Shown: positions 7,925-57,283, counted from the whole stretch's first letter. The stretch is DNA of 63,190 bases, filler included, from Dugesia japonica (GCA_001938525.1; 6 parts of 6 records of this genome joined end to end with filler, not necessarily neighbours in it); one strand, 5' to 3'. Notes: generated from the sequence alone by a model not told the origin. Translations and numbers: made by a program.

Positions 7925-8470
7925 GAACGTTTTGCTCATTTTCCAAAATAAGTAAATTCACGGTACGTCAATTTGTATTTTTCGATTGGAAAATAACATC
8001 CACATGTGAAGTTTTGTACAAAACTGCATCATCTTCTTCATCGATCAAATCATTAAATTTAAATACTGTGATGGAAAAATCGTTTTTCCTTTCAAATTTT
8101 GGAATATTGATGAGCTTCATCGGCATCTTCTACTCATCGTAAATCAACTCATTTAGGAAGCATTTATATTTTATGGACGCCAACGATGATCATATTTTAA
8201 TACTGACAGTATACTGTACAAGAAACATCTATTGTCCATATTGTGCACATTCACTATTGCATTGGATCTATGTAATGATCCAGGACTTTTCATTTCTTTT
8301 TTCCACTATTTTCTGTAAAAACACGTCTGAAAATTCCATGGCTTTGTATGACCATGGCCATTCCATAATCTCAATTGATCATTTTTATTTCCTACCTTTT
8401 CCAATTCGCGATGTATTTCAAATTGAACTTTACATTTTTGAAATTTTTAAAATTTTAGATTACATAAAAC
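7925..8470 (-). pseudogene. pPolB: N-terminal fragment of a further Polinton pPolB (not in the ORF track)
   Basis: Translates to KCKVQFEIHRELEK...ELIYDE*KMPMKLINIPKFERKNDFSITVFKFNDLIDEEDDAVLYKTSHVDVIFQSKN, aligning with ORFs 34522..34767, 34065..34274 and 5333..5656. Confidence 0.85.
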
Positions 8471-12318: not shown

Positions 12319-12812
12319 TTAATAATAAATAAAAATAATGATAAATCGAACAATCAGTGATGATATATAACATCATAATAATCATGAACCGATATAAACA
12401 AAATAATCATTATTATTAGCATAAATCAGATCATGTGATGATTCGAAAATTATTTCTGTTCATAAAATTTATATTATTAGCATAACAATGAGATCATGTA
12501 CTTGTTTGAAAATTATTTCATTACATAAAATTAATTTTATATTTAATTATAAAACGTTTTTTAAATAAAAGTATTATCACATGTATAAATAATAAATAAT
12601 ATATTATTAATTAATCAAAAACGAAATTTGGCAAACATAACAAAAATTATTTTATTATTACAAATTAAGTTATCATACAACATATCATTGATAGTCATAC
12701 ATTATTTGCTTGATATCCATAAAGGAATCATAACGTGGCTATTATTCATTTGTTGAAAACCATTTAAAGCAATCTTGATACGACACTTTATTGATTTTGG
12801 CATTTTTTTCAA

Positions 12813-24929: not shown

Positions 24930-26160
24930 ATAGGGATTTTAGATTAAATTCGTGAACGGGTCCCCAGAGGGCTGTTTTTCCCCAGCCAAGTTTTTTCTAC
25001 CCCAACAGAATAGAAAAAAGTAAAAAATTGCGAGAAGCAGAGAAATCAAGCTAAATTATTATTAAATTGATAAAAAGGAAACAAATTGGCGGAAATGAAA
25101 ACATTTCGCCTATTGAGAAATTTCGAAGTGATAAATTAAAAACCGTCATTGATATTGAAGATCAAGGTCATACAAATTTTCATTTCAATGATGACATTAT
25201 AGATACAAATAATTATTCAACTTATTCCTAAATACTAATGTTAAATGATATCAGATATTTAATTTTTGATCAAAATGGAGTGCCACAAACTAGTCAGCAA
25301 ATTTGAACAGAGCTGATAAAACGCGGCAGTAAAGAATTTCGGTACGAAGATTGTCTTCCATCCATAAGTGGTCACTCTTTAAGATAACGTTGGTTTTATT
25401 GATGCTTAGCAAATGGTGAAGAAAGTTTTCGCTCTTAATTGATTTATTCACCATCAAAAATTCAGTGTATTGTTTCTGCAATCTATTGTTTCATAATTAT
25501 AATAACTATCAATCATCATTTGTAATTGAAAGTGGTTTTCAAATTGGTTACATCTTAAACAGATTCATAATCATGAAAATAGCGCTTACTAATATCATTT
25601 GTTTAGAAGTTGGAAAGAAGCCAAACGCAGATAAGCAACTGGGAATTAAATAACTGAAGCCATAGAAAGAGAAATACAAAATAAAATAAAACGTTGGCAA
25701 GAAAATTTAAAACGGTTTCTTTCTTGTATTAAATACTTGGCTACTCAAAGTATTGCATTCAGAGGTTCTAGAGAAAACTTATTTAATGATAAAAATTCAG
25801 GGAATTTTTGGGAGCTTTTAAAATTGATTGATGAATATAATCCTCTGATTGGAACTCATTTTGCAAAACATTATTGGCTTTCAAAGTGAAATGCAAATTG
25901 ATACAAAATAACAAAAAGTAAGTAGTTTTGTTTAACGGTTGATTCCATTACATATTTACAACACCGAGAGCGGCTCACGCCAATTTTGATTTTAAAACTG
26001 TTGAAATCAAAGAAACATTCATAAGTTTTGAATATTTAAAAGAAAGCAGAGACACATAAATGTAGTCTTTAAAAAATTAAAAACAGATTTTTTAATGGAA
26101 AATTGTTGTAGTCAGTGTTATGATTATGCAGCCTTAATGAAAAGCCATATTTTGGGTTGC
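24930..26160 (+). mobile_element. hAT (ZMYM1/DUF4371-type) transposase remnant
   Basis: IKYLATQSIAFRGSRENLFNDKNSGNFWELLKLIDEYNP, and LIYSPSK...VYCFCNLLF zinc-finger region. Confidence 0.8.
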
Positions 26161-26169
26161 AATATATAT

Positions 26170-27245
26170 ACATTCCATTTCAAAAGTTTATTCTCACCCA
26201 TGTAAATTCATAAGTCAATACGTATTTTTAATTTTTTTCAATTTGTTTAAGTAATGTAAATTGCAAAATATAGTAAATAATATTTTTAAAAATGTTATCA
26301 ACTTATATTAAATGTATTTAATATTTTATGACACATTTTAGATATAATGAATAATCGAAACTTCCTGATGAAGCACAGAATAATAATTGTGAAATTGATG
26401 ATGGACAAAAAAAATCAAATAATGACGGACAGGCATAATATTGATGTGTCAAAGCGTGGCATTCAAAACATTTTCCATGAATATAAGACCGAAGGAATGT
26501 ATGTGGATTGGAAACGAAGTGGAAGACCACCGAAATTATGCCGACGTGTATGCCTGAAAAATAGAAGCATATCGTTAACATAAATAGCACGTACTTGTAA
26601 CATGGGTAACATTCAACATGTGTCCAGATGCACAGTTCACCGCATTCTCAATAAGTACGGATTAAGAAGTCATCCAACTGGTCAATGATAAGCAAAGGAA
26701 AAGAAGATTGCAATGGACGATATCTAAACAGCAATTTGATGTTGATAAATGAGCACTTGTTGTCTTCAGTGATGAATCAATGTTTTGCACATATAATCAT
26801 AGTCGCTCCTAAAGAAGAAAGCGGTTTCAATATGAAAGATTAAGTCCTATTTGTACTCAGAAGGTTATTCAATATGGTGTGCAAATCCATGTTTTGGGAT
26901 GCTTTTCACGATTTGATGTAGGAATTTTGAAACGAATACACGGTACGTTGAATTCTGCAACCTATCAAAACAAAATTGTCAATGATATTGACCTAATTGG
27001 CAAATGCTTGGTCTTCCCTCTGCGTAGTTTCATATTGCAGCATGACAATGCTCCTTGCCATCGATTTGCATCAACATTATCTTTTCTCAGTGAACGTCAA
27101 ATCGATATATTAAATTGACCACAGAATTCTCCTGATGCCAATTCTATTGAAAATTCGTGGCATTTCATCAAGATCAAAATAAATGTCTTGGGACCTCTGA
27201 ATGCTGATAAAATGTGGGCGGTATTACAAAAGATATGGTATCTAT
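26170..27245 (+). mobile_element. Tc1-like (DD34E) transposon remnant, 3' truncated
   Basis: RSGRPPK, VFSDES, FILQHDNAPCH, PQNSPDANSIEN. Confidence 0.9.
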
Positions 27246-31701: not shown

Positions 31702-31834
31702 AAAAATCATACCACAAAAAAAAACCGTCACAAAAAAAACAGTCACAATCGTAATGTGTTTTCGAGCCCCCCCCCGGGGGGGGGTTCCGCCCAGCGCTAT
31801 GCAAGTTGTGATCGTGTGCCGCTATCCCCTTACT
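31702..31834. mobile_element. Polinton terminal repeat, right end, interrupting a pPolB gene
   Basis: Reverse complement 5'-AGTAAGGGGATAGCGGCAC. The adjacent pPolB frame is cut at EWVF, where the other copy continues WIFLRP. Confidence 0.75.
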
Positions 31835-34800
31835 AAATACCCATTCCAGATAATTTTCTCCTTGACCCTCATTTTTAAATAATCCGATCTTATTGGCCAC
31901 TTCATTAGAGTATAATGGGTGATGCTTTGGATAATTGCTTGTATCCAGCAGACTATCAAATTTAATTTCTCTCAGTAATATATTTTTATCTGCTCCAGTA
32001 CATGACAAGAAAAAGCTTTCTGTGTCAACTGCAATAATATCGATTTTACAACCAAATTGATTTCGATATTTTTCCAACTCTTCATACTGTAACTTGTACA
32101 TGCGTAACTTGGCCTATCCAGACATATGCAATCCTTCTCCAGCAAGACAGCTTTTAATCCCTCTGCAATATCCATCGTCTGTTTGAATGTCACTTTGCTT
32201 GTATACGTAACAAATTTCTTTTCATTATTGCAAAGTCGGAGATTCGTGCGCTTCTTTAAATTCTCCACCGTCTTGCCGTACAAAGCAATATTCAGCAATT
32301 TATAAAAATCCTTCTCTAATTTTGTCTTAGATGCAGGTCTTCTCGCTGAATTTGCGTTTATGTAATTTGCAAAAATTTCCAACTGTTTAAATTTTATTAT
32401 CCTGTGTACTGCCGTCACATGAGCACCTAGCTCTATATACAACTCCAATAGATAACATAATGACTTTTTGGCTCATGTGTTAGCAGCAACTTTTTCACCT
32501 TTGATTCTGACGGGCATTTAGGCTCTGTCGCTAAACGTAATTGATCAAACCTACCGATTATGATCGATAGGTATCTCCAGATCAACTTCCAACAAGTATC
32601 CAATTTCATTATCACAGCTTAATAATAATAACTTCTGATATTCTTCTTCCAACTGATCTTCCGCTATAAACTCAAAGTCTCTATATGGTAAAGGCGGAAA
32701 TAAGGCCCAACCATAAAGATTATTTATATCGATATATAGCAGTGAGGTATTTTCATCTGCTCGAACGTAATGTGTATTTACATATGTTATGCCACCTCTA
32801 ATTCTGGATTCAAATAAACGATGCATTTCCGGGTACTGTAGTAATTCCAACGATCTATTCATTGTTTTGAGAGCACTTGACCAACTCAATCCCGGTAATG
32901 ATAGAAATAGAAGTGGCTCCAATGCATGCTCCTCAAGTGCTTTTTTCTGAATGTTTGGAATACATCCGCCAATAGATAAATATCCAGTTTCATATAATAT
33001 AACCTGTAATCCAAGAGATATTTGCTACGAGATTCGGACCATGCTGAAACTGCCAATTGATATTCTTCTTTGTTTATTTCCGGCCACCTTTCTGGCAATG
33101 TTGTTCAATTGACGAGCATCTCATAAGATGTCGCGAACTTGTACGGAAATATTCCTTTACTTTGATGTCCTTGCTGCGGGAATTCTGATAATGTCATCGG
33201 CCAGTTCTCAAGAGTTGCAGTCAACGATGATAGTGAGCTGCTCAGGAACTGGAAAAAATCAATAAATCGAATTGTGACTCCATTGCAAGGAAACATTGCA
33301 AGGAATATTTCTGTGGCTTGCGCAATTGGTTTCAGCTCCCAATGGTGGAATTGACTGAGAGCATATTTGATTATATGATTTGAATCATAACCCTTAAAGT
33401 TATGAAACACAACAGGCAATTCCATCCTGATCTTTCTGGATAAATTGCATTGATTGCATGCAGCTCCAATATATTTTCCCGAGAAATGATCATGATCTCG
33501 AACCAATTTCTTCACTTTATCTTCACATAAATAGCAATGTGTGCATTTCATAAATAACTTCTGTTTGTCTGTAGTTATTTTCATATCTGCACACATGTTT
33601 TTCTTATACTACGGTTCTACTACATTCTTTGCTTATTTATCATTACAATCCAAAATTTCCAGCATACAATTTTCTCCATAAAATGAATATTATTCACATT
33701 TTCTATCTTCTTCAAGCAATGAAATTAATAAAAACCCTACAGCTATCAGCACATAGTTGACTCGACCATCATCTTCTGGAACCAGGAAAGCTGCAATATC
33801 TGCGTATATTACAAATCCTGGAGTCATGGTTTTTCCGAAATCCTTGAATTTCAACTCCTTTACTTCCGGCATTGTGTACAGTGTAGTTTTTGCCGTTATT
33901 TGGCTGCATAAAGGTACATGTTGATTGAATGCAATCTGTGTCTTGAATCCATGCAGACAATTGTGGCACCATTTTCTTTCTATTTGACATTCTATTGATT
34001 TGACACATAATTTTAATAATCTATCTAAATATGGCACTCCCGTGTAATGATAATCTTGATCGTTTTACAGCACAAACAAATTCATGTGGCGTCGATGTGG
34101 GTTTTTGGTTGAAAAAATCACATCAACATGTAGATTTTTGTACACAATTTCAGTGTCTTCTTCTCCATCAAGTACTTCTTTATACTTGAAAACCGCTATT
34201 GATAATTCATTTCTCCGCTCAAATTCGGGGATATTGCTGAGTTTCAGCGGTATCCTCTGCTCATCGTACACCAATTCATGTAAAAAGCTCTCATATTTCT
34301 ATGTTCGATCCCGATCCTTCTTGATTATATCATACTTGAGCCCTGCAAGTATGCTATAGAGAAAACACTTATTATCATAATTCTTGACATTTACTATGGC
34401 CTTGTTGTAATGATTCTGAAATCCAAATAAATGATCAGCCGGATAAGTAAATTACCAGTGAGAACTTGACTAAAATAAACCTCAGCTCCAATATTCTTCT
34501 AATCTTCCAACCACTACTGAGCTAAGAAAAGGTTTTGATTTCTTCATTTGCTTTAGCTGTTACCTTTGTCAAAAAATAATCTGAATACTCTACTGCTTTG
34601 TTGGACCAGCACCATTCCTTAATTTCCTCTTCATCACCGCAATTTTTCTCAAATTCTGCATTTATTCCAAACTGTACTTTGCAGTTTACGATATTCCTGA
34701 CATCTTCTTCAACCCAATATTTTACATTTTCCGGAATATACACTGATTTCATCTCGAGATTCTCCACCTTGAATTAGAAACTGACATATGCACCTTTAAA

Positions 34801-34900
34801 ATCTGATTTTCGTATATAATCTTCAACAACTGTCGTTATTCTTCTCCTTTTTTCAATGCTTCCATTAATACCATTTTCTTGAGTATCATACGTTTCCTAT
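31835..34900 (-). pseudogene. pPolB: Near full-length Polinton pPolB, frameshifted and 3' truncated by an insertion
   Basis: FVIYADI, CYLC...RDHDHFSGKYIGAACNQCN, VFHNFKGYD, KGIFPY, IRGG, YIDINNLYGWA, KLLNIALYGKTVEN, VDTESFF, IGLFKNE. Confidence 0.95.
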
Positions 34901-36899
34901 TTTTAGCCGGCTGCTGTTCACCAACATCATTTTGTTTATAGCAAATTTATGAAGGTGTATTAATCAACCTGGTAATACTAAAATTATTTTTTAATGTAAG
35001 TCGTTGATCATCATTATCGTCACATGACGATGATGATGCCTCAATCAACCCGCTTATACTAAAATCTTTTATTTTATTATTATTTAAGCCTAAAATCCTA
35101 TTGATTGAATAAGGCAGATTAGTATGTTTAATAGATGATCAGTAAGTAGATAAGAGTGTCTCAAAACACTTGCAGTTATCGCAAACCACCCCCGGGGGGG
35201 GGGACTCGGAAACACATTACGATTGTGCTATGATTTTTTGGTAAGTTTTTTTCCTAAGAGTTTTGGGATCAAAAACTCTTTGATCGGATCAAACTTTTTT
35301 TTTGATCGGGTCATATTTTTTTGATCCTGATGGTGTGTATTTTTAAATTTTAAAATTTGTGTGTGTTTAAGTTGTTAAGTTGTTTTTTAAAAAGTAAGTC
35401 AAGTTCAGTTTGTGCTTGTGGTTGTGTTTGTGTGAGTGTGTGAAAGAATGGTTTTAGACTCGAGGAGTAACTGGAGATCTTGGAAAATTTTTTTGTGTAG
35501 TTTTTAAGATTTGGTTGTTGTTGGACAAAAATTTGGTCTATATGTTGTTTAAAGGACTTATGATGTTGGATGGATGAATTTTGCTAGAAGTGTGGTAGCG
35601 CATCAGATCAGTCGTATGAGTTATCGTGGGGGTATTTTTTGAGAGGCTGTAGGTTTGTATATGGTTGATGGAATTTGTTGGTTAATGTATTATTTAAGAG
35701 GTAACGGGATGGAGAAGATTTTGTATGTCGAAAGTGCTTTGATTTTTTATTTTAAAGGCTTGAATTGGATTGGTTTATTTTTGTAGGTTTTATAAGTGTG
35801 TTAAATAATTTTTTATAGAGGGGGACAAAGATATGTGTGGAAAAACAAATAATTATCATATTTTTTAAGATTTATTTGAAATTTTTCTGGATGTCGGGTA
35901 TGACGTCAGAATCTTTTGAAATCTTTATTTTGGTTAAAAATGCTGTATTTTGCTTAAAATGATGAATTTAATAAGAGTGATGATATTTTTGTAAAAATAA
36001 TGTATTTTGAATATTTTTTTAGTGTTTATGAACCGGGAAGGTTTGTTTTTTAATATTTTTGAACCAGGAAGAGGGGAGTCTTGATATTTTTTTTTGCGTG
36101 AAATTCAAAACAAATATTGTTTGGCGGGAAATTCAGAAATTTATTTTTCCATGGGAAATTTTAATTTTTTTTGAGCAGACTTTATATTTATGTATGAGAT
36201 GTAGCAGTATTGATCTTTAGCATGGGGAGTCTCTATATTTAACAATGTATGGGACAATCTTGATATTTTGCATGAACGAGTCTCTATATTTTGTATGGGG
36301 CAATTTATATATTTAGCATGGTATGGGGCAGTCTAAAATTCATAGTCATGCAATTTTCAGTGCATGTGTGTTGCATCTGAGTTGCATAACTATTGCATTT
36401 ATTTAAAAAATCAATATAAATTCAAAATGGCGGCTATGTGGAGTTTTAAAAATTCTCAGGCGCATGATTTCCACTGTATGTGTGTTGCATTCTCATGGCA
36501 TCTGAGTTGTATGCCTATTGCATTTATTAAAAATTTATTTTGAAAAAAAATCAATATAAAATCAAAATGTTGTGGCTATGTTGAGCTTTAAAAATCAAAA
36601 TAGCGGCTAATTCTAAAAAATAATTTAATAAAATAATAATAAATTAAACTCTTACCAAAATAATTTTCATAATTTTTGTCTTCAATTTCATATAACCACT
36701 ATCATAACCATCATCATTATCATTATGACATGTATCTTCCATCTTTTCATCTTCAATAGTTTTTTCTTCATTAATATTTATTTTTCTGTTATCATTAGCT
36801 TCTATTATATTTTCTATTCATTCATGGTTAATGTCATTTTCAAATTCTTCCTCTCCTTGGACAGTGTTTTCAAAATATAATTCACAAGTATTCATTTTG

Positions 36900-37191
36900 T
36901 AAAGAGTGAATTTATTTTAAAAAACAAGTGCTATTTATATAGACCCGATAACCAATCATATCAATTATAGTAAATATTAACCAATAGGAACTCACAAATA
37001 ACAAGTATGTGTGCATCCCAACTAGTATATAAACCCTGTAACCAATCATAAGTGTTAAAACAAATATTAACAAATCACATTAATTATAGTAAATATTAAC
37101 CAATAGGAACTAGTAAATAACGAGTATGTGTGTATCGTAACTAGTAATAAGCAAAGGTTTACATAACACTAATCACTTTTACAACTCAAAA
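36900..37191. promoter_or_regulatory. Putative bidirectional promoter with a duplicated CCAAT module
   Basis: AACCAAT at about 36950, 36978, 37039 and 37098; internal duplication of about 65 bp; TATA-like TATTTATATA (about 36932) and TATATAAA (about 37026); between divergent ATGs at about 36896(-) and 37192(+). Confidence 0.5.
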
Positions 37192-37622
37192 ATGCTGGAA
37201 AATCAACTCACTAAAGAAAAAGTTTCAACTTCTAGAACTTGGGAAAATTACAGATTTCCATAATTACAAGATGTTCTTTTTGAAAACTCCAATTAATTAT
37301 GACTTCAACGTAATTGATTTTTATTTCATTATAAATTATTATTTTATTTTAGAAACCAGTTTCAATGAAAAAATCCAAATTTAGTTTGGTTCTATCCAGA
37401 ATTCATGAGAAGGATAGAAATATACTGGAAGCCCTGTTTGCAAGATTGAGCAGGCAAATTGAAGTCAATGAGACTATTTATATAGCCTTTATAGAACAAG
37501 ATGAAAACAATTATGAAGACGACAGTCAATGGTTAATTCAAGTGGAGATTAAAGGCTTTAAGAAATCAATTAATTCAGTAGGTGTTATATGGAAAGTCAA
37601 AAATATTGCACAGAAGATCTAA
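37192..37622 (+). pseudogene. Two-exon subterminal Polinton gene of unknown function
   Basis: 43-bp GT..AG intron 37310-37352; exon 2 in frame with ORF 37365..37622; exon 1 disrupted. Confidence 0.4.
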
Positions 37623-37781
37623 ATTTGTTTACTTAATGTTTGCTTAGTGTTATTTTTTTTATTGAAATCAATTTTTATGAAAAAGTCTTGTTAGTTTTAA
37701 TTATAAAAACATTTATTAATACAATATTTTAAAAAACTAAAAAAATAAACAAAAACCTAATAATTATACATTTATTTTTTA

Positions 37782-38092
37782 TTAATAATAGCAAAAATAA
37801 TCATTATAACAATTTAGTTCTTCCATATGGTTCTTCATGGCGACACAGAGGTTAAACTCTGCGTACTCGATACAATCTGGTTTGCAAAATTCAGAATCCA
37901 TGTACTCATTGATAATTGAATCCGGGAGCATTGGTTTCCTTTCTTTATCAAGCCTCCCTCGTTTTTCCATTATGTCCACAAGCATTCCTAAATCAAATTT
38001 ATTATTAAAATTATAAAATTAATAAAAATCAAACCTTATTTACTAAATTGTTCTTCCATTATCTTCATTTTTCCTGTATTTGTTGAATTCAT
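37782..38092 (-). pseudogene. Two-exon small Polinton gene of unknown function
   Basis: 47-bp GT..AG intron 37988-38034 links ATG 38092 in frame to ORF 37782..37985, leaving one stop. Confidence 0.45.
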
Positions 38093-38196
38093 ATTTAAAA
38101 ANNNNNNNNNNNNNNNNNNNNNNNNNNNNNNNNNNNNNNNNNNNNNNNNNNNNNNNNNNNNNNNNNNNNNNNNNNNNNNNNAGCGTAATATATTAA

Positions 38197-38753
38197 TTAT
38201 TTGAAATTTAAATATCTAAATTTAAATTGATATTTTTTGTACTTGAATTGTGAAAATTTTGCATCCATGTTGCGAATTTTCAAAATTTTATCCACCAAAA
38301 TAAACAAATCTAAAGTAATGTTATTCACATATCCTTGAAAATACAGATTTTTAAGTCCAAGTATGACCAGTTTTCTCGTTTAGAACACATTTTCACATAA
38401 AGAGTCATATTTTACAACTCTTAGAGCAGTAAAAAACTCTGGTTCGAACCAACAGTTGACTATTCTTGCTAATTTATACAAATTTATTGAAACTTCCATA
38501 TTTATGACAANNNNNNNNNNNNNNNNNNNNNNNNNNNNNNNNNNNNNNNNNNNNNNNNNNNNNNNNNNNNNNNNNNNNNNNNNNNNNNNNNNNNNNNNNN
38601 NNNNNNNNNNNNNNNNNNNNNNNNNNNNNNNNNNNNNNNNNNNNNNNNNNNNNNNNNNNNNNNNNNNNNNNNNNNNNNNNNNNNTACTTCTTGTGACACT
38701 TTACCTCGGTAATTAATATTGGTTATCATAATTAATGAATTAAAGAGGAACAT
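38197..38753 (-). pseudogene. Second copy of the Polinton TBP-like gene (repeat 1 mostly in an N gap)
   Basis: MFLFNSLIMITNINYRGKV...[gap]...VINMEVSINLYKLARIVNCWFEPEFFTALRVVKYDSLCENVF*TRKLVILGLKN. Homologous to 13278-13829 and to TBP repeat 2. Confidence 0.8.
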
Positions 38754-38813
38754 TGGGTTTTCATGTGAGTTAACTATGTATTAAATTATGAAAAAAAATT
38801 AAATAAAAACAAG

Positions 38814-39446
38814 ATGGAGAGATTAAGAAATGATGCAGTCTATCAAATTGTTGGACCTAGTGATAGTGGAAAAACTTGGTTTGTATGCCAATTATTGAAA
38901 TCAAAGTTATTCAAGACAAAATTTAAAAACATATACTGGCATAGGAGTGCAGATGAGGAGCATGGATTGACTAAATCTGAACTTTGTAGTATTAAAATAA
39001 AAATTATAAATTGTTTTGATTCCAATTTTAATTCTAAAAGATTAAGACCAGGTGATATTATTGTTGTTGATGATCTGTATCAGGAAGCAAACAAAGAAAA
39101 AGATTTCAATAATTTATTCACAAAGATATCAAGACATCGTAATGTGACTATGATATTTATTACTCAAAATTTATTTCATCAAGGAGGTAGTCATAGAACC
39201 CGTAATTTAAACGTACGATATTTGGTTTTATTCAAAAATCTTATAGATCAAACTGTAGTTGATTTTCTAGCAAGACAAGCATATCCAAATAACAGACAAT
39301 TTCTTATTGAATCATTTCAAGATGCCTCAGAAAAACAACATGGATATCTATTTCTTGACTTTACACAACAATGTCCAGATGATTATAGGGTGAGAACAGA
39401 TATATTCAATTCAATTGGTATCACAATATATAAACAAAATATGTAA
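38814..39446 (+). CDS. Polinton DNA packaging ATPase (A32-like), open 210-aa frame
   Basis: Walker A GPSDSGKT, Walker B IIVVDD, SRHRNVTMIFITQN, HGYLFLD, RVRTDIF. Confidence 0.95.
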   Translation: MERLRNDAVYQIVGPSDSGKTWFVCQLLKSKLFKTKFKNIYWHRSADEEHGLTKSELCSIKIKIINCFDSNFNSKRLRPGDIIVVDDLYQEANKEKDFNNLFTKISRHRNVTMIFITQNLFHQGGSHRTRNLNVRYLVLFKNLIDQTVVDFLARQAYPNNRQFLIESFQDASEKQHGYLFLDFTQQCPDDYRVRTDIFNSIGITIYKQNM

Positions 39447-39725
39447 TTTTTCATAATATTTCAAAGAATGACAAAATTAAAGATATTTATAGTTGATCAA
39501 TTAACTGGTGGTGTTGTTAAACTTCAAAAAATATCTTTTGAGAAGAAAGAGTATGGAAAAAGAAGAAACCATCGCATTAGAAACAACATGCAAATAAAAA
39601 GCAACAAGTAAATAAAAGGAATATGTTTAAAAAACTTGCAAAGAGAAGTGGAAAAAAGCTGCGAATAATGAACAGAAAAGCGATTATAAAAAAATAAATG
39701 GTATGCATTATTTTAATAAATAAAG

Positions 39726-40046
39726 ATGAAATTACAAAGAAGCATTCTGTTTTTTTGCATCTTTGATTAAATCATCAAAACCTATTAGAATGAGAATTTT
39801 ACAATCATTCCCGCCATATGTTATAGATGATTTACTTGAAATTATTATAAATATTGTTCATGGTAATGTAGATTTGAGAGCAGCCAAAATGAAAACCTTG
39901 AAAACACATAAAAAACTTTATTAACTCTTGTAAACACAAAAAATATAAAATCAATGAGACAAGTAATCACCAATCAAGGTGTTGGTTTTATAGCAGCATT
40001 TTTACCAATTGCATTAGCTGCATTAGATTTAATTCATTTCAAATAA
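39726..40046 (+). pseudogene. Basic Polinton core-like protein ending in an amphipathic peptide
   Basis: EIIINIVHGNVDL...KTLKTHKK...NQGVGFIAAFLPIALAAL, the usual NxxxGNx...QxGGF-hydrophobic pattern of this Polinton family. Confidence 0.65.
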
Positions 40047-40544
40047 ACAATGGTTGATTTGAATATTAATAATTACAATAGAATTATCTCAAATGAACAA
40101 TAGATGGATTGCAATCATTACCTAACTTGGACCTGAAATTTGCATCAAATTGTTGTTTGAGACAAAAATAAAGACAATATAGACAGATACAGAAATTGAT
40201 GAAAGCAGATCAAAAAACGAAAAGAAAGACGAAAAAGTGGTTATTTGTTAAGCTAGTGTACAGTCTGAACAAGTCAATGTTGAAAAGATTTCCAACAAGA
40301 GCATATAAAGAATATGGTATTGATAATTTATGGTAAATGTATCTAATTGAAATGATTAATTAATTTTAAAAGAATATTTTTGTCTTTTGTCGTTGTATTC
40401 ATTAGATTTACAAGAGCTGTTTCATTTTAATAAAAGGGCCCTGAAAGAATAAACAATATTATGTAAAATGAAATGAATACGAAAACCAATTTGAATAGCA
40501 GCAACACAAATAAAATAACAAGACAAAAATTCATATGAAATCAA

Positions 40545-40630
40545 ATATTTTATACATTTTTACGAAGTAATAGTAGTCCATTAGTTCATCCAAATAATAC
40601 TGCTAGTAATTACATTGTTGAGCTTCAATT
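40545..40630 (+). pseudogene. Penton N-terminal fragment
   Basis: FYTFLRSNSSPLVHPNNTASNYIVEL aligns with 15968-16045. Confidence 0.65.
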
Positions 40631-40631
40631 A

Positions 40632-40662
<31 letters not shown>

Positions 40663-43229
40663 GCTTATAAATAATTGTAAATTCATAGACACAATAAATA
40701 GTCTTTTATGAAAATAATCTTATAAACTAATTTTTATTTATATTAAAAATTATTTTTATTAAAGAATAATGCATTTTAATAATTGCAAATTTAAAGAGAT
40801 CCAAAAATTTTATTACTTTTCTTTAAAATATAAATAAATAATAATAGATAAATAATAAAGAATAAACAATATTTTAAAAAATAATATTCCTAGAAATTAA
40901 TTCCGTTACCCGTCGGATTTTGACGTTTTCTGTTTTTGTCAGATTGAACAGTTTTAAATTATTTGTTTTCCATCTTTCCAACGTTGTCAATTTATTATTT
41001 ATTCTGACCACCTACATTTTTTTGTTTCATTTAAAGTCTTGAATTTTTGTTGCTCCCGCTCATTCTTTATAATATTAAACTTTTCTTTCAACTTTCCGCC
41101 TTATTCTTTTTAATTAAATTATTTTATATTTTATACTCTGTTTTTAGGTATTGCTTACTATTCAGAAGCCTCAGAATAAAATACTCATATGAATACAAAC
41201 ATTTTTATTTACAATGAACATATATATATAAATATATTCAACATTTTTATTAATTTAATAATATTTAATTTAATTTAATACTATCTATTTACAATTTTTA
41301 ATTTATTTTAAAATTTTCACAAAATCTTGATTCTACTCAACCCTAACAGAAGAACACAAAACGAAATTTCATCCAGCAACAATGATTAGGTGAATCAATG
41401 TGTTGGTTTTAGAAGAATAATGAAAAGACGGCTGAGTAATGCTCAGCAGAGACAGTCCTTTATTTAATAAACGAGATTCTTAATTATATTTTCAAAATCA
41501 TGCAATTTATTTTCATTTCATGAGTTTGAAGATTACTCCAATGTAAATTTTTTATCTTACTTTATAAACTTTATAACTTTGAATAAAAAATTTAAAACCT
41601 TATATATAAAATCTACAACTTTCAATAAAATATAAAATATTTGTTTTAAATAAAATTATTAGCGAATTGTACTGACAAAAATGAACGATAGTAAAGACAA
41701 TTTATTATACACTAGAAATTAAAAATAAATTATCAGATAATTAAAAAAGTATACCAGCATTGTAAAATATAATAAACTGATACATTTTCAGATGTTACTC
41801 AAAGCTTAGTCACATGTTTCACAGACGAAAAGAAATATGATTAGAATAGAAAACTCTTGAGCATTCCTGTTGAGTTNNNNNNNNNNNNNNNNNNNNNNNN
41901 NNNNNNNTACTAATCGCATGTAATGAAATAATATGAGACTAAACAATTCTTAAAATTAGATTTTTGATGAAACGTGTTTTTCAAGGAAAAATATTTTGTG
42001 CTAATCAATGAATTAATAAAAAATCTTTTAAATTTAAATGTATTTATTAACTTGGTAAATCCATTTTACAAATGAAAATTATTAATGAAAACTTGTGATA
42101 ATAATGTCAAATTTAATTCATATATCAGTCTAATTTCGGAAAGTTATTTAATGAATATTCGTAAAGTCAGATAAAGAGCTTTTACATTGCCAAATTAATT
42201 TTTAAAGAAAATTACATTTAATTTGAATTTGAGATTATTAGTTAATTTTGTAATTACAGATAATTTTAAATAAATTTAGTATTTTTGCTTAGCTAATATT
42301 AAAATATAGCACAGTCAAGTCACACTTTTAGATAGTTATCATATATTTATTTAAATATAAATTTTTAATAAATAAACTTAATTTTTTGAAAAATCAAGTT
42401 AGGAACTGTTCATTAATTATGGCCCTTAAGACGACCGTTTTTCATTTACATTTGACAAATATATTTAAAATAAATTTATCAAATAAATATTAAAGTGAAT
42501 TAAAATAATAAAATAAAACAAATCTGGATAAAGGTCTGAANNNNNNNNNNNNNNNNNNNNNNNNNNNNNNNNNNNNNNNNNNNNNNNNNNNNNNNNNNNN
42601 NNNNNNNNNNNNNNNNNNNNNNNNNNNNNNNNNNNNNNNNNNTTAATTTATTCAAGTTAAATTAAAAACCAAATTGTTATCGTCATCTTCAGACAAAAAT
42701 GAAAAACATGAGATTATTCAGTCTGTATTATTCACAAAAAAAGATTCAAGAAATTATACTGAATATTAGATGGCTATAATAAAAATTCAAAAGTCTTTTA
42801 AAATTACTTACCCGAGTGTTGTGATTGCAAATAAATTCCTGTATATCATTTTAAAAAGTCCTAAAGAATGTTTAATAAAAAGAAATGACAGAAAAATTTT
42901 TTTTAAGAAAATAATTATTTTTCAGTCTGAGATCTGATACATAAAAATATTTGTGAGATATGACTAAGAATAATTAAATACTTTTATATTGACCTTTATA
43001 AGAGTAAATTGACAGATGTATGTGTTAATAGGTGAATGCGTGATTAACTGTTTGAATGTGCCTATGATTTTAGTGCTCAGACATTATTATATAACCGATT
43101 CCTCAAAAGCTATATATATTTGTTACAGTGTAATTTGGTACTTTAAATATATATTTTATGCTTAACTCTATTTCCAAGTCAAACAATATGATTAAGAAAT
43201 TTCTAACCGAGATAAATTATTTATAAACT

Positions 43230-43650
43230 ACTATCTCAAAAAATCAGGTTGTCAGACATGAAATTGATGGAATGCAAAATGAAATTACATTGTGCAAATG
43301 AGAACATATTAGTAACAATAGGAAAAATAAGATTGAACCTTCAGGTTGATAATAGAACGGAACCAATTGTTTTCATTTTAGGAAAACAAATGGTTCCAGA
43401 AATAATAGGCGGAGTGAAATCTTTAAATACTTTCGGGTTTCATTAAGAGCAAATTGAAAAAAAAACGGGAGTATGAAAAGTTGCGCAGTTTTCAGGGAAG
43501 ATGGACCATAAGACAATGTTAAAAACGAAGAAACCGGTGTTAAGTCAATTTCAAACATGGATTAATTTCATTAATAGTCTAGAAATAAACTCAGAGTATA
43601 TGAAGGGTATATTAAACGAAAACGCAGATACTTTGAGCAGACTGATGAGT
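43230..43650 (+). mobile_element. Gypsy pol fragments (protease region and RNase H end)
   Basis: LHCANENILVTIGKIRL...IIGG; EYMKGILNENADTLSRL. Confidence 0.6.
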
Positions 43651-43739
43651 TTAAGCATATAAATTTATAATTCAATTTTATTTTTCAAAATTTGACAATA
43701 AAGGACAAAAGAACAAAACTGAATTTGATAGAAGATATT

Positions 43740-44330
43740 TTGAAATAAATTTACACGATGGCGTTTATTAGAAGACTTACAAAACAGTTCGAATTTTTGG
43801 ATCATGTAAAACAGTGGTTTCAAAAGTTCAAGATCGTTTAAAAGTGTTTCGTAACAATTTTGAACTAAATGTAATTGGATCTACACAAGATTATGGTAAC
43901 AATTAATTACAAATTTATGAAGATTGACCAAATTTATAATTATTGATCAATACTGCATCTCGGTGTTTGGGAAAACTTATAAAAATAATAGTGATTTTCA
44001 TTTATCTGCAGAGGATTCCAATAATTCAGATGAAAGTAATGTTTTTGTCGATGCTTTTGATATGAACGTCGTACAATAAGAATGTCGTCATGATGTAGAT
44101 TTTAATGAAACATTAAAATAAAACGCAAGGCATGTTGTAAAATTCATTAGAAATTCTACAGTCAGAAATCAATTATCCTAATGTAAAGTAATTGCGGAAT
44201 TTGGTAATGAAATCGAACTTCATTTAGTTGTGAAACACTGCCAAAATTCCATTGCGGTCATGATTACGCCGTTAATAAAAACAAAACGGTGTTTACTTGA
44301 AACTTTTCTGATCTCAATTCAATGATTCAA
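43740..44330 (+). mobile_element. hAT (Ac-like) transposase remnant
   Basis: RHVVKFIRNSTVRNQ...ELHLVVKHCQNSIAVMI resembles the degenerate L..DV.TRWNS...M motif. Confidence 0.5.
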
Positions 44331-45718
44331 AACCCGAGGAGAATAGTTTAGCACAATAATACTGTTAGGATGTTGGAATTATGCACGAACGATTGCTACA
44401 AATAAAAATGTTTTGTTAAATTCATTCTTGAAATGGGAAATTTTTAAATCAAATGAATTTATTATAGTAAATATTTGTTTCTTAATGTAAGAGGTTTTAT
44501 TTAAATGGGTTGTTTTCAAACCATTTGTTTATATTTTGGGAGTGGAGAACCTTTTGAATTCGAGTGATTTTATTTTGATATTTTGTAAGTTTCTATTGAT
44601 TGTTTTTAATTTTTCTGTAACCATTTTTATTTTAAGATTGTATAATTAATTTTGTGAGCGTATATACCTATCTGTTATTCATATTTTCTTTAATCATGAT
44701 TTTCTGAAATTGCAAAGATTAAATAAGACTTTTCACAATATAATTATTCCACAATAGCAATTTTCACGTTAAATTTCCAATCCGTTTTAAAATTCCACAT
44801 TTTCTTCCGCTTTATTTCTTAAATATATTTAAACACCGTTATAAAAATATCCCTTACTTTTAAATTCATTTTTACCAAGTGATATAAATAGATACGATGC
44901 ATTGTGCTTGTATGTTTTATACATATTGAACTTTACAGACTTAGATTTCAAAACCATATTAGAAAAGANTTTTTATGATTTAATATACAGTTAAACTTCT
45001 ATAATTTGTAAATTCTATAAATTACTAAAGGTTTTAAAAATATCAGTAAAATTGTTAATTTTTCAATATTATTTGCGTATTTTATAAAAATATCTCTAAA
45101 ATTTGCTAAAAATATTCGGAAAATCAATAAAGTAAGTTGTAGAAGTTTAACTATATTTCTGAAAACTATTAAAATATAAATATAAATAAATATTTATAAG
45201 TATAAATATAGAAAAAATAACATTTATTCAGATAAATCTTTTCCGGTTTTGCTTTACAATGTAGTAGTTGTAAATTAAAAATTGTAATAAAACATTGAAC
45301 GTAAAGAAATTAAACTATTTGAAATAAAAGTAACAGATATAAAAAATATTTTCGATAAAATTTGATAAGTTAAACTGGTAAAACAATTGAAAAATTAGAA
45401 GTAAAACAATGACTTACTAAAAAAATATATTGATGATGAAAAACTTCAAATGTAATAAATAATTTGTCAATTCTAAATAAAAATATTAAAAAAATACTGA
45501 ATTAGTGAAATTAAAGGTAAAATTAATAATAAAATTATTTATAACAATGAAATAATAAAATAAGTTGAAGATTAATTAGATAATAAAATTAATAAAAAAA
45601 ACTCCAAATAATTAATGANNNNNNNNNNNNNNNNNNNNNNNNNNNNNNNNNNNNNNNNNNNNTTAATTAATTAANNNNNNNNNNNNNNNNNNNNNNNNNN
45701 NNNNNNNNNNNNNNNNNN

Positions 45719-48729: not shown

Positions 48730-51700
48730 TTAAGAGACATCGTTCGACACCATTTGTCCACTCTCTGCCACAATATCTCCACTTACACCAACAGTTTTCT
48801 CCACAATTTCCCCACTTACTGCCACAATTTTCTCCACAATCTCCCCACTTTCTGCCGCAATCTTCTCCAATTCTCTCATTAAATTAAGACACAACTCTTC
48901 TTTCCATGGAAGACTTACACATTGCACACTAACAGGGAGTTTTTCAGTATCTTTTTGCAACTAAAATGATTTATTAAGAAAACCTAATTTAACAATATTC
49001 TTATTAACCATTGAAATGTTTTTCTGTGTAGGTGTCGATTTATAAATAGGATCAGATTGCAAGTTTTTAATATCATTAGGTTTAACTTTAGTAACTGGAA
49101 CAGTACCTGCAGGAAAGTTCACAAGATTCCAAATGAATATGTAGCTCAACAACGGGCTGTATAAACAATTGGCTTTCAGTGGAAGCGCAGTAAAACCCCC
49201 AGCTGGACAGATGACAACGTCTAAACCGCATTTTGACCATTCATTAATTACACTAATTCTAAACGATTCTATTTCCATTAATAATGCCATACAATCCGAA
49301 CTATTCAGCGTTTCAATACTGCATTGATGGAACAATTTCATATCTGGATCAACTACCTGAAATATATATATATATACCTTTAAATTAATTAATTGGTTTT
49401 TGCAGAAATAAATTTAAAAGGTTTCAAAATATATTTAAAATAATAATGTTGTACAATGTACAAAATACAAGAAAATCAAATATTCCAATATTGTTGTTCT
49501 TTTTTTTCGCTGTTTTATTAAAACTTGAGTATCATCAATATCATTGGATAATGTTTTTCCCCGAGTAGACACAATATAAACAAAGGATGTCTTGCAGGCC
49601 AGAAAATCCTCACCAAGACACTGAGTACTTGGATATTGGCCAGCTAATAGCTGTAAAGGGAGCATGAAAAGGAAAAAATAAGAAGATAGAGTGTATGAAC
49701 TATCAAAGTACTCTTCATTTAGGGGACACTCTAAAAATAGCTATTCACAATAGTGTTCAAACCATCCAACTCACTCTACGTGTTGNTTCACTTATTACCA
49801 GGTTCTGTACCTTTACTCACAATATAATTATGTAAGCTACCGTGATTGGCTTCAATGCCAGATACTGAATAACAATGGAGCGCTTCACAGCAAACTGATA
49901 TGAACAGTTCTTACACTTTTGATCATAACTACTTTTTTTCCCTGAGGGAAAGTTGGATTGTTATAAATTCTCTTGCACGCCAAAGCCGCATAAGGAAAAA
50001 ATAGTGACCACTCCCAGCTCCTTCACTAATCTCAATCATGTTCGAACTGTTCATAAAAATAGTTGTTCGAGGTGAAATAGTTGTTCAAGATAGAATAGTT
50101 GTTCGAGATGAAATTAAGAAGAACAGTTCTAACACTTTAGATCATGTATTCATTTTTTCAAAGTGTGTCATATAGTAAATATTACAAATATTTGGAAATT
50201 TTTTAAATATATTTTGAAAATTTTTAAATATATTTCTGCAAAAACCTGTAAATAACAAATAAATCAAATATTAAATTGCCGTTTAAAAGTCCAAGGATCG
50301 AGAAATTCCGAAAATTATTAAATAAAAACCAAATCTTTAAATGAGAAACAAAACAAACAATTAATAGTGTCCATAAAAATCGAATTTATATTATATTGAA
50401 TCAATAGCATGAAGAAGCTCCAAATATTAATCTATAAATAATTAATAAACAAAGAAACAAAAAAATCAAATTAGAAAAATCGAAAATCAACACCCACGAA
50501 ACGATACCTTGGAAATTTAGTAATACATCTGATTCTGTTTTAATGTGATAGATTTGTTCCGCCACAACTCGGTAAAAAAAACTGCGTTTAAATTTAAATC
50601 CATAAAAAATATTAATTACCGTTTATTCTATTCAGTAAAATTTACATGTGAACTTTTTTAAATAATTTCTNNNNNNNNNNNNNNNNNNNNNNNNNNNNNN
50701 NNNNNNTGTATTATAACCAAAACTTAAGTGAAACAAAAAAGCGAAAGGAGTGCCGTAGATTTTTCGTATCACACGATTTAGTGTTCATTTCTAGAAATAT
50801 GTTAAAACAAGCACCTAGATATTTTGTCTCATTAAAATTGTTTTAAATAAAAGAAATTTAAAACACGTAAAAACAGAGTGCAATAATTTTTTGGAATCGC
50901 GTAAAAATAGAATTAAGTGTATAAATAATACTGGATATAATAAGTAATATCAGTGCTTAACTCATCAGCTATGTTTTCACTCATTTGTATAATTTCTTAA
51001 CAGCAATTTCATTTTAATATTCTAATGCAGTGATCGGTAAACTTTATTGTTTGACGGCACATTACATTAAAATTCAACAATTTGATATCATTTTAATGTA
51101 TTTAACAAATTTGAATTTATACATTTTTATATAATTAATAGTTTTGGAAGTAAATAACTTTTAATATACAATCAATTCATATTTTAATGAGAAGGATGTT
51201 CTTGTTTTTGTGGACATGTTAAATCTATTCTTGGTCCAACGCTCGATAAACACACATAAAATAAAATAAACATCAATTCGACGAGGCACACCATTAGAAT
51301 CTAATGTAGAAAGTGACATACGTTGCATAAAGATGGTTATGATAATGTTAATGATTCTTTATTCTTAATACTATTTAATTTAATTTAATAATTGAAAGCT
51401 CATTTAATTCTTCCAATTTTCTATTATTTCTTTAGCATACTACTTCTCTGTGTCCCTACATATCTGAAATTACATCAGTCTCCCTCAAATTCACTATCAA
51501 ATTTTACCAAAATATATATTCAACTTTTCTTAGTTTCCAATCAATTTTAAAAATCTTCATCGTACAATTAAACAATGATCATCCAAATATCCATGTTAAA
51601 TTTACAAGGCTAAATTTTTTATGAAATTTACATATTTTGAAGACTTCTATTTATGGAGACAGAAAATCTAAAATTAGATTATGTATCGAGATGCATTTGA

Positions 51701-53247: not shown

Positions 53248-53680
53248 ATATAGGGAGTTCAAAAGATCTTGAGACAATTTCAAATATTGATTAAAATTAC
53301 AAATGAAACATGAATCTAATGGAACGCTTAAATAATATCAAGTGATTAATAAAGTTTATATTCAATTGGAAAGAAAATTTCTGTGTTCTTCATTACTTGA
53401 ACGGAAGATATCCAAACGACACGCAATTTCCGTCCATGTTCTTCTTAGCATTACTTCATCAATGGCATGTACAGCGGTAGTTATCCTCAAATTCAGATCA
53501 TTTATATCCTTAACCTTTGCCTGATACAAATCATTGTTCACGGAACTCCACAAGAAAAAATCAATTGGTGTTCTATCGTGGGAACGAGGAGGCCACCAAA
53601 TCAGGCCATCTCTTCCAATTCGACGATCAAGAAAAGTTTTACTTAAAAAGTTACGAACATTTTTACCCCAATGAGATAGT
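53248..53680 (-). mobile_element. Tc1/mariner rosa (DD41D-like) transposase 3' remnant
   Basis: VRNFLSKTFLDRRIGRDGLIWWPPRSHDRTPIDFFLWSSV...DLNLRITTA. Confidence 0.85.
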
Positions 53681-53689
53681 ACGGTAAGT

Positions 53690-54050
53690 TCTTTACAATA
53701 TTTAGTTTTATAATTCTTTTGTGTTTGAATATCGGAATTAGTTTCAATAAACCAAGAAACACGTTGTGGTTTTTCTTTTCTAAGCGTTATTTTATAAAAT
53801 TTCGCTATTTTCCATTTATATTTAATTAATTTTTAATAACTTTTTAAAATTGTTTAAAAACTTTCGACCACCGTTGATTGAATAGGAATGTAAATACAAC
53901 TTCCCCCAGTCTTTATCGTATAAATGCGGTTTCCGTTTTACTACCTACAATAATGAAATAGAAATCTTTATTTTCCCTAAAAGAACATACATTATTCGAA
54001 GACACAACTATACCTATTTTAAGATTGTTAGCAGAACACTTTAACTATTT
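53690..54050 (-). pseudogene. Diverged duplicate of two FAAH exons
   Basis: Intron and acceptor 53941-53990 resemble 53001-53047. VVKRKPHLYDKDW versus VVQWKPPLCGKEW; NNLKIGI versus KKLKIGY. Confidence 0.6.
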
Positions 54051-55599: not shown

Positions 55600-56970
55600 C
55601 GATTATTATTGTTTTATTTAATTTTAAAAAATTTTTATACCAAACTGCTGAAAATTTTACAGCGATCATTTAACACAAATAAAGTTTTCAAAAATATTTT
55701 CCTTCTTAAATAGGTTACAAAAGTGTCTATGCGATAGAGAATCTTTCACTGATTCCAAATATGTTAACCTTAAATCGTTGAAGTTAACACTCGATGAAAT
55801 AAATGGGGTTTTGCCGTGAAAAAATCTCAAACTTTGAAATTTTGTATTCAATTTTCTCAGCGTACATAACTCGTATGGTTTCAAGGCCCAAGCCTAAAGC
55901 GGTTATAGATTTATTATTGAACATATTTAAAACCTTATGAGATTGAGATACAACCTTTATATTTAAAATATTCTTAAGAGCATTTTTAATGAAAAGTTTG
56001 AATTTTTAAAGCCTTCAGAATAAGGTAAAGATAAAACAATTTTAGGATATGTTTTTACAACCTCAGATACATCAACACAAGACAAGTCACTATTTAGTTT
56101 ATTCAAAGTTTCATAAAATCATTTGTCCATAAACAATTTAGAATACCCGTTATTATGAAGTAAGTTAATTAAAAAAAGTAAAAAAGAGAGATCAAGAACG
56201 ATGAATTAGTGTTTTAATCATATTACTTTTATATTTTATGTCACAAAAATTGACAGGATTTGTAAACAAACCGGTATCAGTTTTCTTTCTATATATCTCT
56301 GTTTCAAATGAAGTATTCTTTCTTTCAATAAGCAAATCAAGGAATAAAATAGTTAAATTGATCTCTTCTTCAACCGTAAAGCCTATATTGGGATGCAAGT
56401 TATTCATATACTCCAAAAACGGATGTACTTGAGAGTGATTTCCGAAGACAAGAAAAATGTCATCGACATAACGTTTATAAACTAAAGGTTTAACAGAAGA
56501 ATAATCATTAATTTACTCTTTACTTTAGACAAGAAAAAAGAAACTAATGTTGGAGCTAATGGGGATCCTATCGCCACTCAATCAATCTGTCTATACCATT
56601 CATCATTAAAAAGAAATTGAACATTCAATGTTGCAAAAGTTAAATGATCATGGAACGCTATATCATCTAAAAAAGATTTATTAGGATTAAAATCACTCCA
56701 TATTTCACCACATAAATCAATTGTCTCTTTTAATGGAACATTAGTAAATAAATTTGTGACATCAAATGAGCCCATAAAGCAATCATTATTAGCCAATGGA
56801 TACTGAGAAATAAAAGATGAAAATTCAAAACAATCTTTGCGCTCAAATTCAGATGTAAATAAAAGTTTAATAAGCTCATCCAACAGCTTTGCAACCTTAT
56901 ATTGATTTGTTTTTATCATGGACAAAGCATGACGCATAGGGACATCTTTCCTATGAACTTTGGGAAGGAA
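55600..56970 (-). mobile_element. Penelope-like retroelement reverse transcriptase remnant
   Basis: SFDVTNLFTNVP, YRQID/VAIGSPLAP, YKRYVDDIF, NNLHPNIGFTVEEE, FLDLLI, YRKKTDTG. Confidence 0.88.
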
Positions 56971-57283
56971 ATAAATTAATTTAATTAATTCAATTTAATA
57001 TAAATTTGTAATGGTTTCATATTTGGTTTTCATTAAATTTAAGCGAATTATGGGAATTTTGTGAATTTTCAGAGATTTTTGTAAGTTTTCGCGAATTAAA
57101 GAATTCCTGTAGATTTCATTAATTTAATGTAGAATATATGTGATTTCGACAAATTTTGAGTAATTTCTAGGGGTTTTCCTGAATTAAAAGTGAATTGTGG
57201 GGTTTTATCAATTTAAATGAAATTTTGAGGTTTTCATAAAGTTTTAAGGATTTATGAATTTAAATGGATATATGAGGTTATAC

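Follow-up and report, generated by a model that had tools for sequence, protein, structure and literature searches.

The poxvirus factor VITF-3 belongs with the TBP-TFIIB systems of large dsDNA viruses. As described in the available part of PMC7221094, these viruses carry a TBP fold without the eukaryotic N-lobe regulator surface, in which they resemble the Polinton protein considered here, but they mostly supply their own TFIIB-like protein; in a selection of 91 ORFs from the related Polinton loci, no Pfam match to TFIIB or RNA polymerase families was detected, with remote homologues possible among the orphan ORFs. The second described system is KSHV ORF24, the vTBP of beta- and gammaherpesviruses, which acts at TATT late promoters (PMC12529657, available part). 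The likeness is that a viral TBP-fold protein is coupled to host Pol II and to a variant form of the TATA box ahead of the virion genes, a combination shown for ORF24 and suggested here for the Polinton. ORF24, however, has several domains, makes direct contact with Pol II, depends on five further viral factors and is without the acidic residues for TFIIB contact (same part of PMC12529657). In contrast, the mini-TBP of Polintons is a bare saddle of 150 aa, with the TFIIB-contact acids kept and no room for extra N- or C-terminal domains, and the associated box varies in its 3' half.

Animal Polintons (Mavericks, adintoviruses), as far as the available part of PMC8502044 describes them, share with the loci related to ours the pPolB, the chromodomain rve integrase, the A32 ATPase, the adenain-like protease, the PLA2 domain and the capsid-type genes. 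The available part of that paper mentions TBP in a single place, the legend of Fig. 5, which concerns viruses found in non-animal datasets, with no accompanying text; no promoter motif was found in the portion of text examined, and neither TBP nor TATA gave a match in the portion of the supplement examined. The accessible part of the preprint of Starrett et al. (10.1101/697771) likewise names TBP only in figure legends, again for viruses from non-animal datasets, and both TBP and TATA are absent from the main text of PMC11131425 and of 10.64898/2026.06.19.733378. Within open text, figure legends were the only place where a mention of TBP was found in print. The question addressed here is how Polintons, having no RNA polymerase of their own, pass from the silent integrated state to particle making. 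What lies at 38197-39446 is an unremarkable fossil, and the family to which it belongs carries an unusual transcription module that lends itself to testing.

Three decayed copies of the TBP-like gene

The window, i.e., the whole stretch of DNA analysed, consists of 63,190 nt from Dugesia japonica (GCA_001938525.1) in six assembly pieces, with joints of the form N44-TTAATTAATTAA-N44, of a genome that is AT-rich (about 27% GC) and repeat-rich. Copy 1 is located on the piece 12319-22725 and copy 2 on the piece 31702-45618. A preliminary description had placed at 38197-39446 a divergent pair of a TBP-like gene and a Polinton A32 ATPase gene. Both genes were confirmed, the TBP-like gene on the minus strand and the ATPase gene on the plus strand, and all the TBP-like peptide motifs quoted in that description were found on the minus strand of copy 2. 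The two copies were also correctly described as diverged in DNA: only the ATPase genes align (68% over 595 nt), and the TBP-like genes show no blastn match at 1e-5.

The first 15 codons of the copy 2 mini-TBP gene (38685-38729, minus) agree with P0131 at 14/15 residues and with P0122 at 13/15, and the alignment of relatives places the family start at 38729, with an in-frame ATG upstream at 38753. The spacer of 60 bp given previously holds only from this upstream ATG; from the start shared by the family, the spacer is 84 bp (38730-38813). The rest of TBP repeat 1 is expected within the following assembly gap of 174 N (38511-38684), the flanks of which align to P0122 residues 1-15 and 76-148. 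Compared with P0122, about 59-60 codons are missing, which fits 176 nt, and the relatives hold repeat 1 in those codons; the IFxSGK repeat is present in the copy 1 mini-TBP. The C-terminal lobe (38197-38508, minus) is a pseudogene with one in-frame stop at 38380-38382, and 54/73 of its residues are identical with P0122. Since it matches the profile of 33 intact relatives with an iE of 1e-23, this piece is not a chance likeness; in Pfam, the C-terminal piece alone gave no match. Its reading frame continues about 30 codons beyond the end of the nearest relative, and homology stops near 38290. The stop is private to this copy, because nearly all the depth from other copies differs at the stop codon in three DNA runs.

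The A32-like packaging ATPase gene of copy 2 (38814-39446, plus; 210 aa) is open but eroded. It matches Pfam Pox_A32 at 29.1 bits (cut-off 22.8) and has 324 relatives, the best at 79% identity; 8 of its 97 near-invariant positions are altered, the intact members showing a mean of 1.1 and a maximum of 10. Downstream are a decayed small basic ORF (39736-40019, plus), which is next after the ATPase in related elements (tblastn to ORFs of L004 and L002, E 2e-15 and 8e-8) and putatively core-protein-like, and then an internally deleted plus-strand segment (40175-40628) with an integrase fragment (40175-40360) and a penton-like fragment (40548-40628); the penton label is based on position and likeness to L013, without a Pfam match. 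The downstream synteny claimed in the preliminary description is correct on the ATPase side, where copies 1 and 2 both continue with the small core-like ORF, the integrase and the penton. On the TBP side, both copies have an SSB-like gene next after TBP, but in opposite orientations (13064-12714, minus, in copy 1; 37320-37604, plus, in copy 2). In copy 2 this decayed gene for a gp2.5-type single-stranded-DNA-binding protein (profile iE 6e-10) is convergent on TBP across an 80-N gap. Between the two genes lies a decayed ORF (37800-38050, minus) that has no match among the fetched loci.

A decayed gene for a protein-primed-type B DNA polymerase (pPolB; 31829-34680, minus; tblastn to the polymerases of L004 and L013) is present on the assembly piece of copy 2, and we infer that it belongs to the copy 2 element. 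It is located 3.5 kb from copy 2, across a gap and within another inverted repeat; pPolB is present also in L004, L013, L050 and L056. Inverted repeats of 64 nt (78%) at 31719-31782 and 35189-35252 flank the remnant, with a similar end at about 23039-23116, and the remnant may be a polymerase segment carried within another DNA transposon.

In copy 1, the mini-TBP gene is broken into four frame pieces (13314-13756, minus). The cassette on the other side (13841-17948, plus) contains remnants of ATPase, small ORF, integrase, penton-like, major-capsid-like, protease-like and exonuclease-like genes, with five sense ATAAACA boxes and one antisense. The integrase remnant of copy 1 is near-whole, and rve is found in related loci. 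Capsid-type genes are represented by remnants in copy 1 and by the penton-like fragment alone in copy 2, the labels being based on size, position and mutual likeness without Pfam match; a Peptidase_C5 match was obtained in L046. No terminal inverted repeats or target-site duplications were found around the cassettes, of which the copies are deleted and the pieces short.

A third mini-TBP copy, absent from the preliminary description, is located at 4095-3799 (minus). It has lost its 5' end and faces a pPolB remnant, not an ATPase; 73/98 residues are identical with P0121, and the profile iE is 2e-32. Copy 3 is the only window copy above the Pfam TBP cut-off (24.4 bits against 22.9), the broken pieces of copies 1 and 2 being below it. 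The decayed pPolB opposite copy 3 (5294-7514, plus) lies across a 129-N gap, and a second pPolB fragment is found at 7920-8400 (minus). The three copies represent separate subfamilies, because their nearest database proteins are different (74-76% identity).

The claim that the TBP-like gene is a stable, selected family gene is supported. The search with the window pieces yielded 76 protein relatives, all with precomputed PF00352, the best full-length ones of about 150 aa. The intact relative P0127 scored 55.7 bits against the Pfam TBP cut-off of 22.9, and 33/33 aligned members matched at E<=0.001. The profile of these 33 relatives detected 472 cluster representatives at E<=1e-10, some of them cellular-type TBPs. 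Of 89 metagenome loci (L numbers), 80 were fetched and confirmed. Another Polinton hallmark gene is present in 39/80 loci and in 21/26 loci of at least 4 kb; in L004 and L013, a nearly complete cassette is preserved, which includes the ATPase, the integrase, capsid-type genes and the polymerase. Conversely, the TBP gene is present in 3 of 10 loci fetched independently via the ATPase.

Selection was estimated by pairwise Nei-Gojobori dN/dS on natural sequences. Among the TBP genes of intact loci, 36 of 528 pairs, not independent of one another, were usable (0.05<pS<0.6) and gave a median dN/dS of 0.21 with a maximum of 0.46, 0/36 reaching 1. The codon-aligned comparison of copies 1 and 2 proposed in the preliminary description gave 0.20 over 65 codons for TBP, near saturation (pS 0.68; pN/pS 0.42, bootstrap 0.28-0.60), and 0.22 for the ATPase. 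For copy 3 against copy 2, the TBP value was 0.46. The value of 0.82 for TBP copies 1 and 3 (pN/pS interval 0.62-1.31) is not distinguishable from 1 and counts against the window-level selection test; our reading is decay plus distance. Near-invariant TBP positions are altered at 5/25 in copy 2, 5/36 in copy 1 and 8/27 in copy 3, against a mean of 0.8/38 in intact members. Selection on copy 2 is historical, as the gene carries one stop and changes at 5/25 of these positions.

In the DNA runs of the host, about 11,000 contigs per run match 37200-40700 at >=92% identity, and so the copy 2 family is highly repeated, although such depths are not copy numbers. This Polinton family is one of high copy number, its copy at 38197-39446 is decayed, and, as one fossil among very many in the Dugesia japonica genome, that copy adds little alone. 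In four RNA runs, between 11 and 306 reads matched, most of them at a likeness of 85-95%, from either strand and in most cases diverging from the stretch beyond the match; they indicate neither expression nor silence and yielded no start sites.

Fold and partner surfaces of the mini-TBP

The mini-TBP resembles the cellular TBP/TRF family (PF00352) in the two-lobed saddle, the C-lobe E-P-E-L-F-P stirrup and three of the four intercalating Phe residues, but differs in its smaller size, its shortened helix H1, the loop in place of H2, the replacement of a stirrup Phe by Pro and an identity of about 20%. The AF2 model of P0127 (an intact relative, not a window copy) has a pLDDT of 93.6, and its best Foldseek matches in the PDB are TBPs. 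Superposed on human TBP 164-337 (VIA Z 12.6, rmsd 2.8, 146 aligned), the model forms a pseudo-symmetric saddle that covers residues 1-151 of the 151-aa protein. About 28 residues are missing relative to human TBP, and sequence alignment puts this loss in the N-lobe: H1 is short, and H2 is replaced by a loop of 18-20 aa, in agreement with the model, in which no long helix is present between strands E45-51 and E65-77. The TBPs of related Polintons form a series from full-length proteins with a basic H2 (L071, L074, L077; H2 linker 31-32 aa) through intermediate ones (L050, L056, L064; 25-31 aa) to the mini type (18-20 aa). The contig L071:2065-3582 is Polinton-like and encodes, besides a near-canonical 180-aa TBP, a second ORF with one TBP-lobe match. 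In the Polintons L074, L077 and L079 (e.g., L077:1302-2728), the full-length TBP gene stands beside a PC4-domain gene, and the upstream word is TAAGA, not ATAAAC.

In the alignment, the column of the first (N-lobe) stirrup Phe is an invariant Pro, whereas the three other DNA-intercalating Phe residues are invariant in 33/33 members, as is the first Asn of the DNA-binding face among aligned mini-TBPs. The C-lobe is complete, with E96, E98, F100, P101 and F116 (P0127 numbering) invariant and both TFIIB-contact glutamates kept in 33/33; the pattern E-x-E-x-F is found in 180/212 matches, fragments included. According to the available part of PMC7221094, the C-lobe glutamate pair contacts TFIIB, the basic patch of N-lobe H2 contacts TFIIA, TAF1, Mot1/BTAF1 and Brf1/2, and the TBPs of large viruses are often without both surfaces and bring their own TFIIB. 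Judged from the alignment and the model, the mini-TBP has dropped one partner surface (H2) and kept the other (TFIIB glutamates). For TRF2, the loss of Phe is given as the reason why TATA is no longer bound (PMC10005294, available part), and by analogy the loss of one Phe could weaken DNA binding by the mini-TBP.

The commonest neighbour of the TBP gene encodes a 116-aa protein, for which an Atlas score of 0.86 had raised the idea of a partner like TFIIB or a sigma factor. This assignment was ruled out: the model of an intact relative (pLDDT 91.9) folds as a gp2.5-type SSB, close to Enc34 SSB (Z 8.4, rmsd 2.9, 103 aligned) and T7 gp2.5 (Z 8.0, rmsd 2.9, 105 aligned).

The ATAAACR box and candidate readers

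The sequence (T/G)ATAAAC(A/G) is present ahead of 11/11 intact ATPase genes, the upstream windows of which served as the discovery set. The motif was then counted in 70-nt windows before genes (167 remaining of 206 after de-duplication). Before virion/packaging-type and accessory genes, ATAAACR is found on the sense strand in 58/100 windows and on the antisense strand in 1, against shuffle means of 3.2 + 1.0; by group, these are 35/67 for mini-TBP loci (antisense 1, shuffle mean 3.2) and 23/33 for intermediate loci (antisense 0, shuffle mean 1.0). Before TBP and POL genes, the box is found in 1/46 windows. ATAAAC is the top 6-mer of the windows (61 sense, 1 antisense), 36/58 matches are located 25-33 nt upstream of the ATG, and 9/54 instances have a final G. 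In held-out material, the box lies 24-29 nt upstream of 6/7 small ORFs of the MG..CC type; among ten loci fetched via the ATPase, two with reduced TBP have it in 5/12 windows, and the other eight in 0/23. Where the box overlaps coding sequence, synonymous codon choice is constrained: 17/18 intact ATPases ending in Tyr-Lys use TAT AAA, about 40% being expected from their own codon use.

Coverage by the box is uneven. Gaps in the mini-TBP group include the penton (2/7), the small pre-capsid ORF (1/6) and the SSB gene (2/16), and 37/72 non-coding box matches have no ORF of at least 90 aa within 70 nt. Over the whole window, the box is not enriched (54 against 48 expected). In the copy 1 cassette, three ATAAACA boxes are located 26-34 nt before a likely start; in copy 2, a box within the ATPase 3' end (39430-39436, plus) lies 31 nt upstream of the next ATG (39468), that of the post-ATPase ORF. 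Nine viral loci selected by integrase proved to be distant elements and do not enter the counts. Queries with the ATPase gave nothing usable in viral contigs, metagenome contigs or phage records, and the capsid alignment was too divergent to serve as a search query.

Our main reading, to which we give a probability of about 60% on sequence and model data, is that the mini-TBP of about 150 aa is a late-promoter factor of the Polinton itself, a candidate for binding this box and for an early-to-late switch through host TFIIB and Pol II. Host TBP would transcribe the mini-TBP gene early, and the mini-TBP would then bind the (T/C)ATAAAC(A/G) box ahead of the ATPase, capsid-type and several other genes, with its intact C-lobe on the TATA half and its remodelled N-lobe on the AAC(A/G) half. 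The TBP N-lobe reads the 3' half of the TATA element, and host TBP is said, from the crystallography of TATA variants, to be poor at binding TATAAAC. The C-lobe is placed on the 5' half of the box because a Pro after the C-lobe Phe favours T at the first TATA position (PMC12529657, available part). Offered the duplexes TATAAACA, TATAAAAG and TATAAGAA, the mini-TBP would favour the one with the matching box. Once bound, it would recruit host TFIIB and Pol II and, without H2, would escape TFIIA, TAF1, Mot1/BTAF1 and Brf1/2. Such a switch can be tested directly, as it comes down to a single 150-aa protein and a single 8-bp element. Nature would here also have tried whether a TBP saddle without H2 and with three Phe can start transcription and evade Mot1/TAF control, and the pair might be put to use as an orthogonal promoter system.

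The box could instead be read by a host factor, such as a Forkhead protein or a host TBP paralogue, with the mini-TBP acting elsewhere, for instance as a TFIIB decoy or as a competitor at host TATA boxes that damps host transcription. The invariance of the TFIIB-contact glutamates alongside an eroded N-lobe agrees with such a role, as do the ATAAACA sequence itself, which we take to fit the Forkhead consensus, and the looser constraint on TBP (dN/dS 0.21, 36 pairs) than on the ATPase (0.016, 3 pairs). We consider a host reader unlikely, however, in view of the strand specificity of the box (58 against 1), its tight spacing peak, the instances that end in G and the invariance of three Phe and the first Asn on the DNA-binding face of the protein. 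The distribution of the box relative to TBP type also speaks against it. In five loci with full-length TBP, the box is replaced by TAAGA, found in 11/27 windows (0 antisense; 0/200 shuffles as high), ATAAACR being found in 1/27; this count includes the mutually related L074, L077 and L079, and the distances scatter over 0-59 nt. TAAGA is at background level in the reduced-TBP loci. Seven partial contigs in which no TBP was seen are marked by neither word (0 and 3 of 35 windows).

We hold a wider proposal tentatively and with somewhat less than even confidence: a one-protein orthogonal promoter code of animal Polintons, in which a captured TBP was trimmed stepwise (from 180 aa to about 167 and then about 150 aa), losing the helix for host regulators but keeping the TFIIB grip, and each TBP type would read its own 3'-altered box (TATAAAC or TAAGA). 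If true, no smaller early-to-late switch would be known from any eukaryotic DNA virus, and the protein would be a natural TBP of reprogrammed specificity. The motif and the reduced TBP share one region of the ATPase tree (89/85, unstarred), and for this reason their match may reflect one inherited event. Such shared ancestry is part of another explanation, in which the box is an initiator, RNA-processing or translation signal, e.g., for poly(A) or leader addition. Its resemblance to AATAAA fits this explanation, and the distance of 25-33 nt to the ATG, which implies very short 5' leaders if the box has a TATA role, is awkward for a -30 element. We regard such a signal as improbable because the box is present also where no gene on the same strand precedes it, as in the copy 1 spacer and before the SSB genes of L002 and L005, and because in L013 and L044 (integrase) it is located well within the preceding coding sequence, ahead of its stop.

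Finally, the element might depend, like a virophage, on a helper large DNA virus, the box being a late promoter of the helper and the mini-TBP serving the helper polymerase. Virophages use helper late promoters, and TBP-fold proteins are carried by large DNA viruses. Many of the TBP genes, however, are preceded by elements of the host Pol II type, namely ordinary TATA boxes, often with CCAAT and TCA(T/C)T, and [GC]TATAWAWR is found in 13/39 early against 6/67 late windows, the labels 'early' and 'late' being assigned by gene function. No helper was seen, and the host-type TFIIB glutamates are kept, which in large-virus TBPs are often lost (PMC7221094, available part). Dependence on a helper is the least probable of these explanations, and a late-promoter factor of the Polinton itself stays the preferred reading.

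The divergent spacer and accompanying sequences

The preliminary description suggested that the short divergent spacer may be a shared promoter and that a comparison across copies could reveal a conserved motif. A shared promoter finds support in part. In copy 1, the spacer contains overlapping boxes at 13804-13816, TATAAACA on the plus strand toward the ATPase and TATAAAAAG on the minus strand 47 nt before the TBP ATG, as read from the sequence; at such an AT content, words resembling TATA on a single strand are frequent. Only copy 1 keeps the pair: the copy 2 spacer has no intact ATAAACR box and the copy 2 ATPase none ahead of it, and the spacers of other host copies are variable. A 249-nt contig with 28 differences that covers 13636-13880 shows that other host copies span TBP and ATPase, and at the joint 38735-38814 three DNA runs, together with loose ends, show other host copies that carry different spacers. 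In the subfamilies of Dugesia japonica, an early TBP promoter and a late ATPase promoter would stand back to back in one short spacer.

As a family trait, the head-to-head pair was ruled out. In none of the 66 metagenome loci where 300 bp or more precede TBP is there a close head-to-head ATPase. Of the 26 loci that contain both genes, 22 are co-directional, with the ATPase downstream of TBP in 21 and upstream in 1; 3 are convergent, and 1 is divergent, at 1.7 kb. Copies in the host do bridge the two genes, and the TBP/ATPase pairing is therefore a layout of this lineage, in which the spacers vary, and does not hold throughout the family.

Farther along the TBP side of copy 2 is a decayed acidic ORF that extends leftward from about 36880. 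An 84-bp direct repeat (87%) at 36930-37150 holds several CCAAT boxes, along with TATA-like words on either strand, and is similar to the host-type promoters ahead of the TBP genes in L002 and L003. Host-side remnants at 48730-49740 (minus), 53362-53832, 56192-56994 and 25650-27118 look, by their translations, like an amidase exon (intron-split), mariner/Tc1- and hAT-type transposases and a LINE reverse transcriptase; a Pfam scan of 27 window ORFs gave no match.

The TBP-bearing elements also carry accessory genes, including those for a ubiquitin-conjugating enzyme (L013:222-719), a PLA2-like domain (L050:3994-4398) and KilA-N (L056:7145-8005). Ten Polinton-like contigs (L083-L092) are filed within bacterial genome bins and are probably mis-binned eukaryotic-virus DNA. 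Just before the integrase, a conserved ORF of 18-43 aa with a Met-Gly start and a Cys-pair end is present at L002:5299, L004:4691, L009:2475, L013:4536, L044:3410, L046:1531 and L089:6131; its product is possibly a myristoylated virion peptide. A decayed trace of the same ORF seems to be present in copy 2 near 40100-40155.
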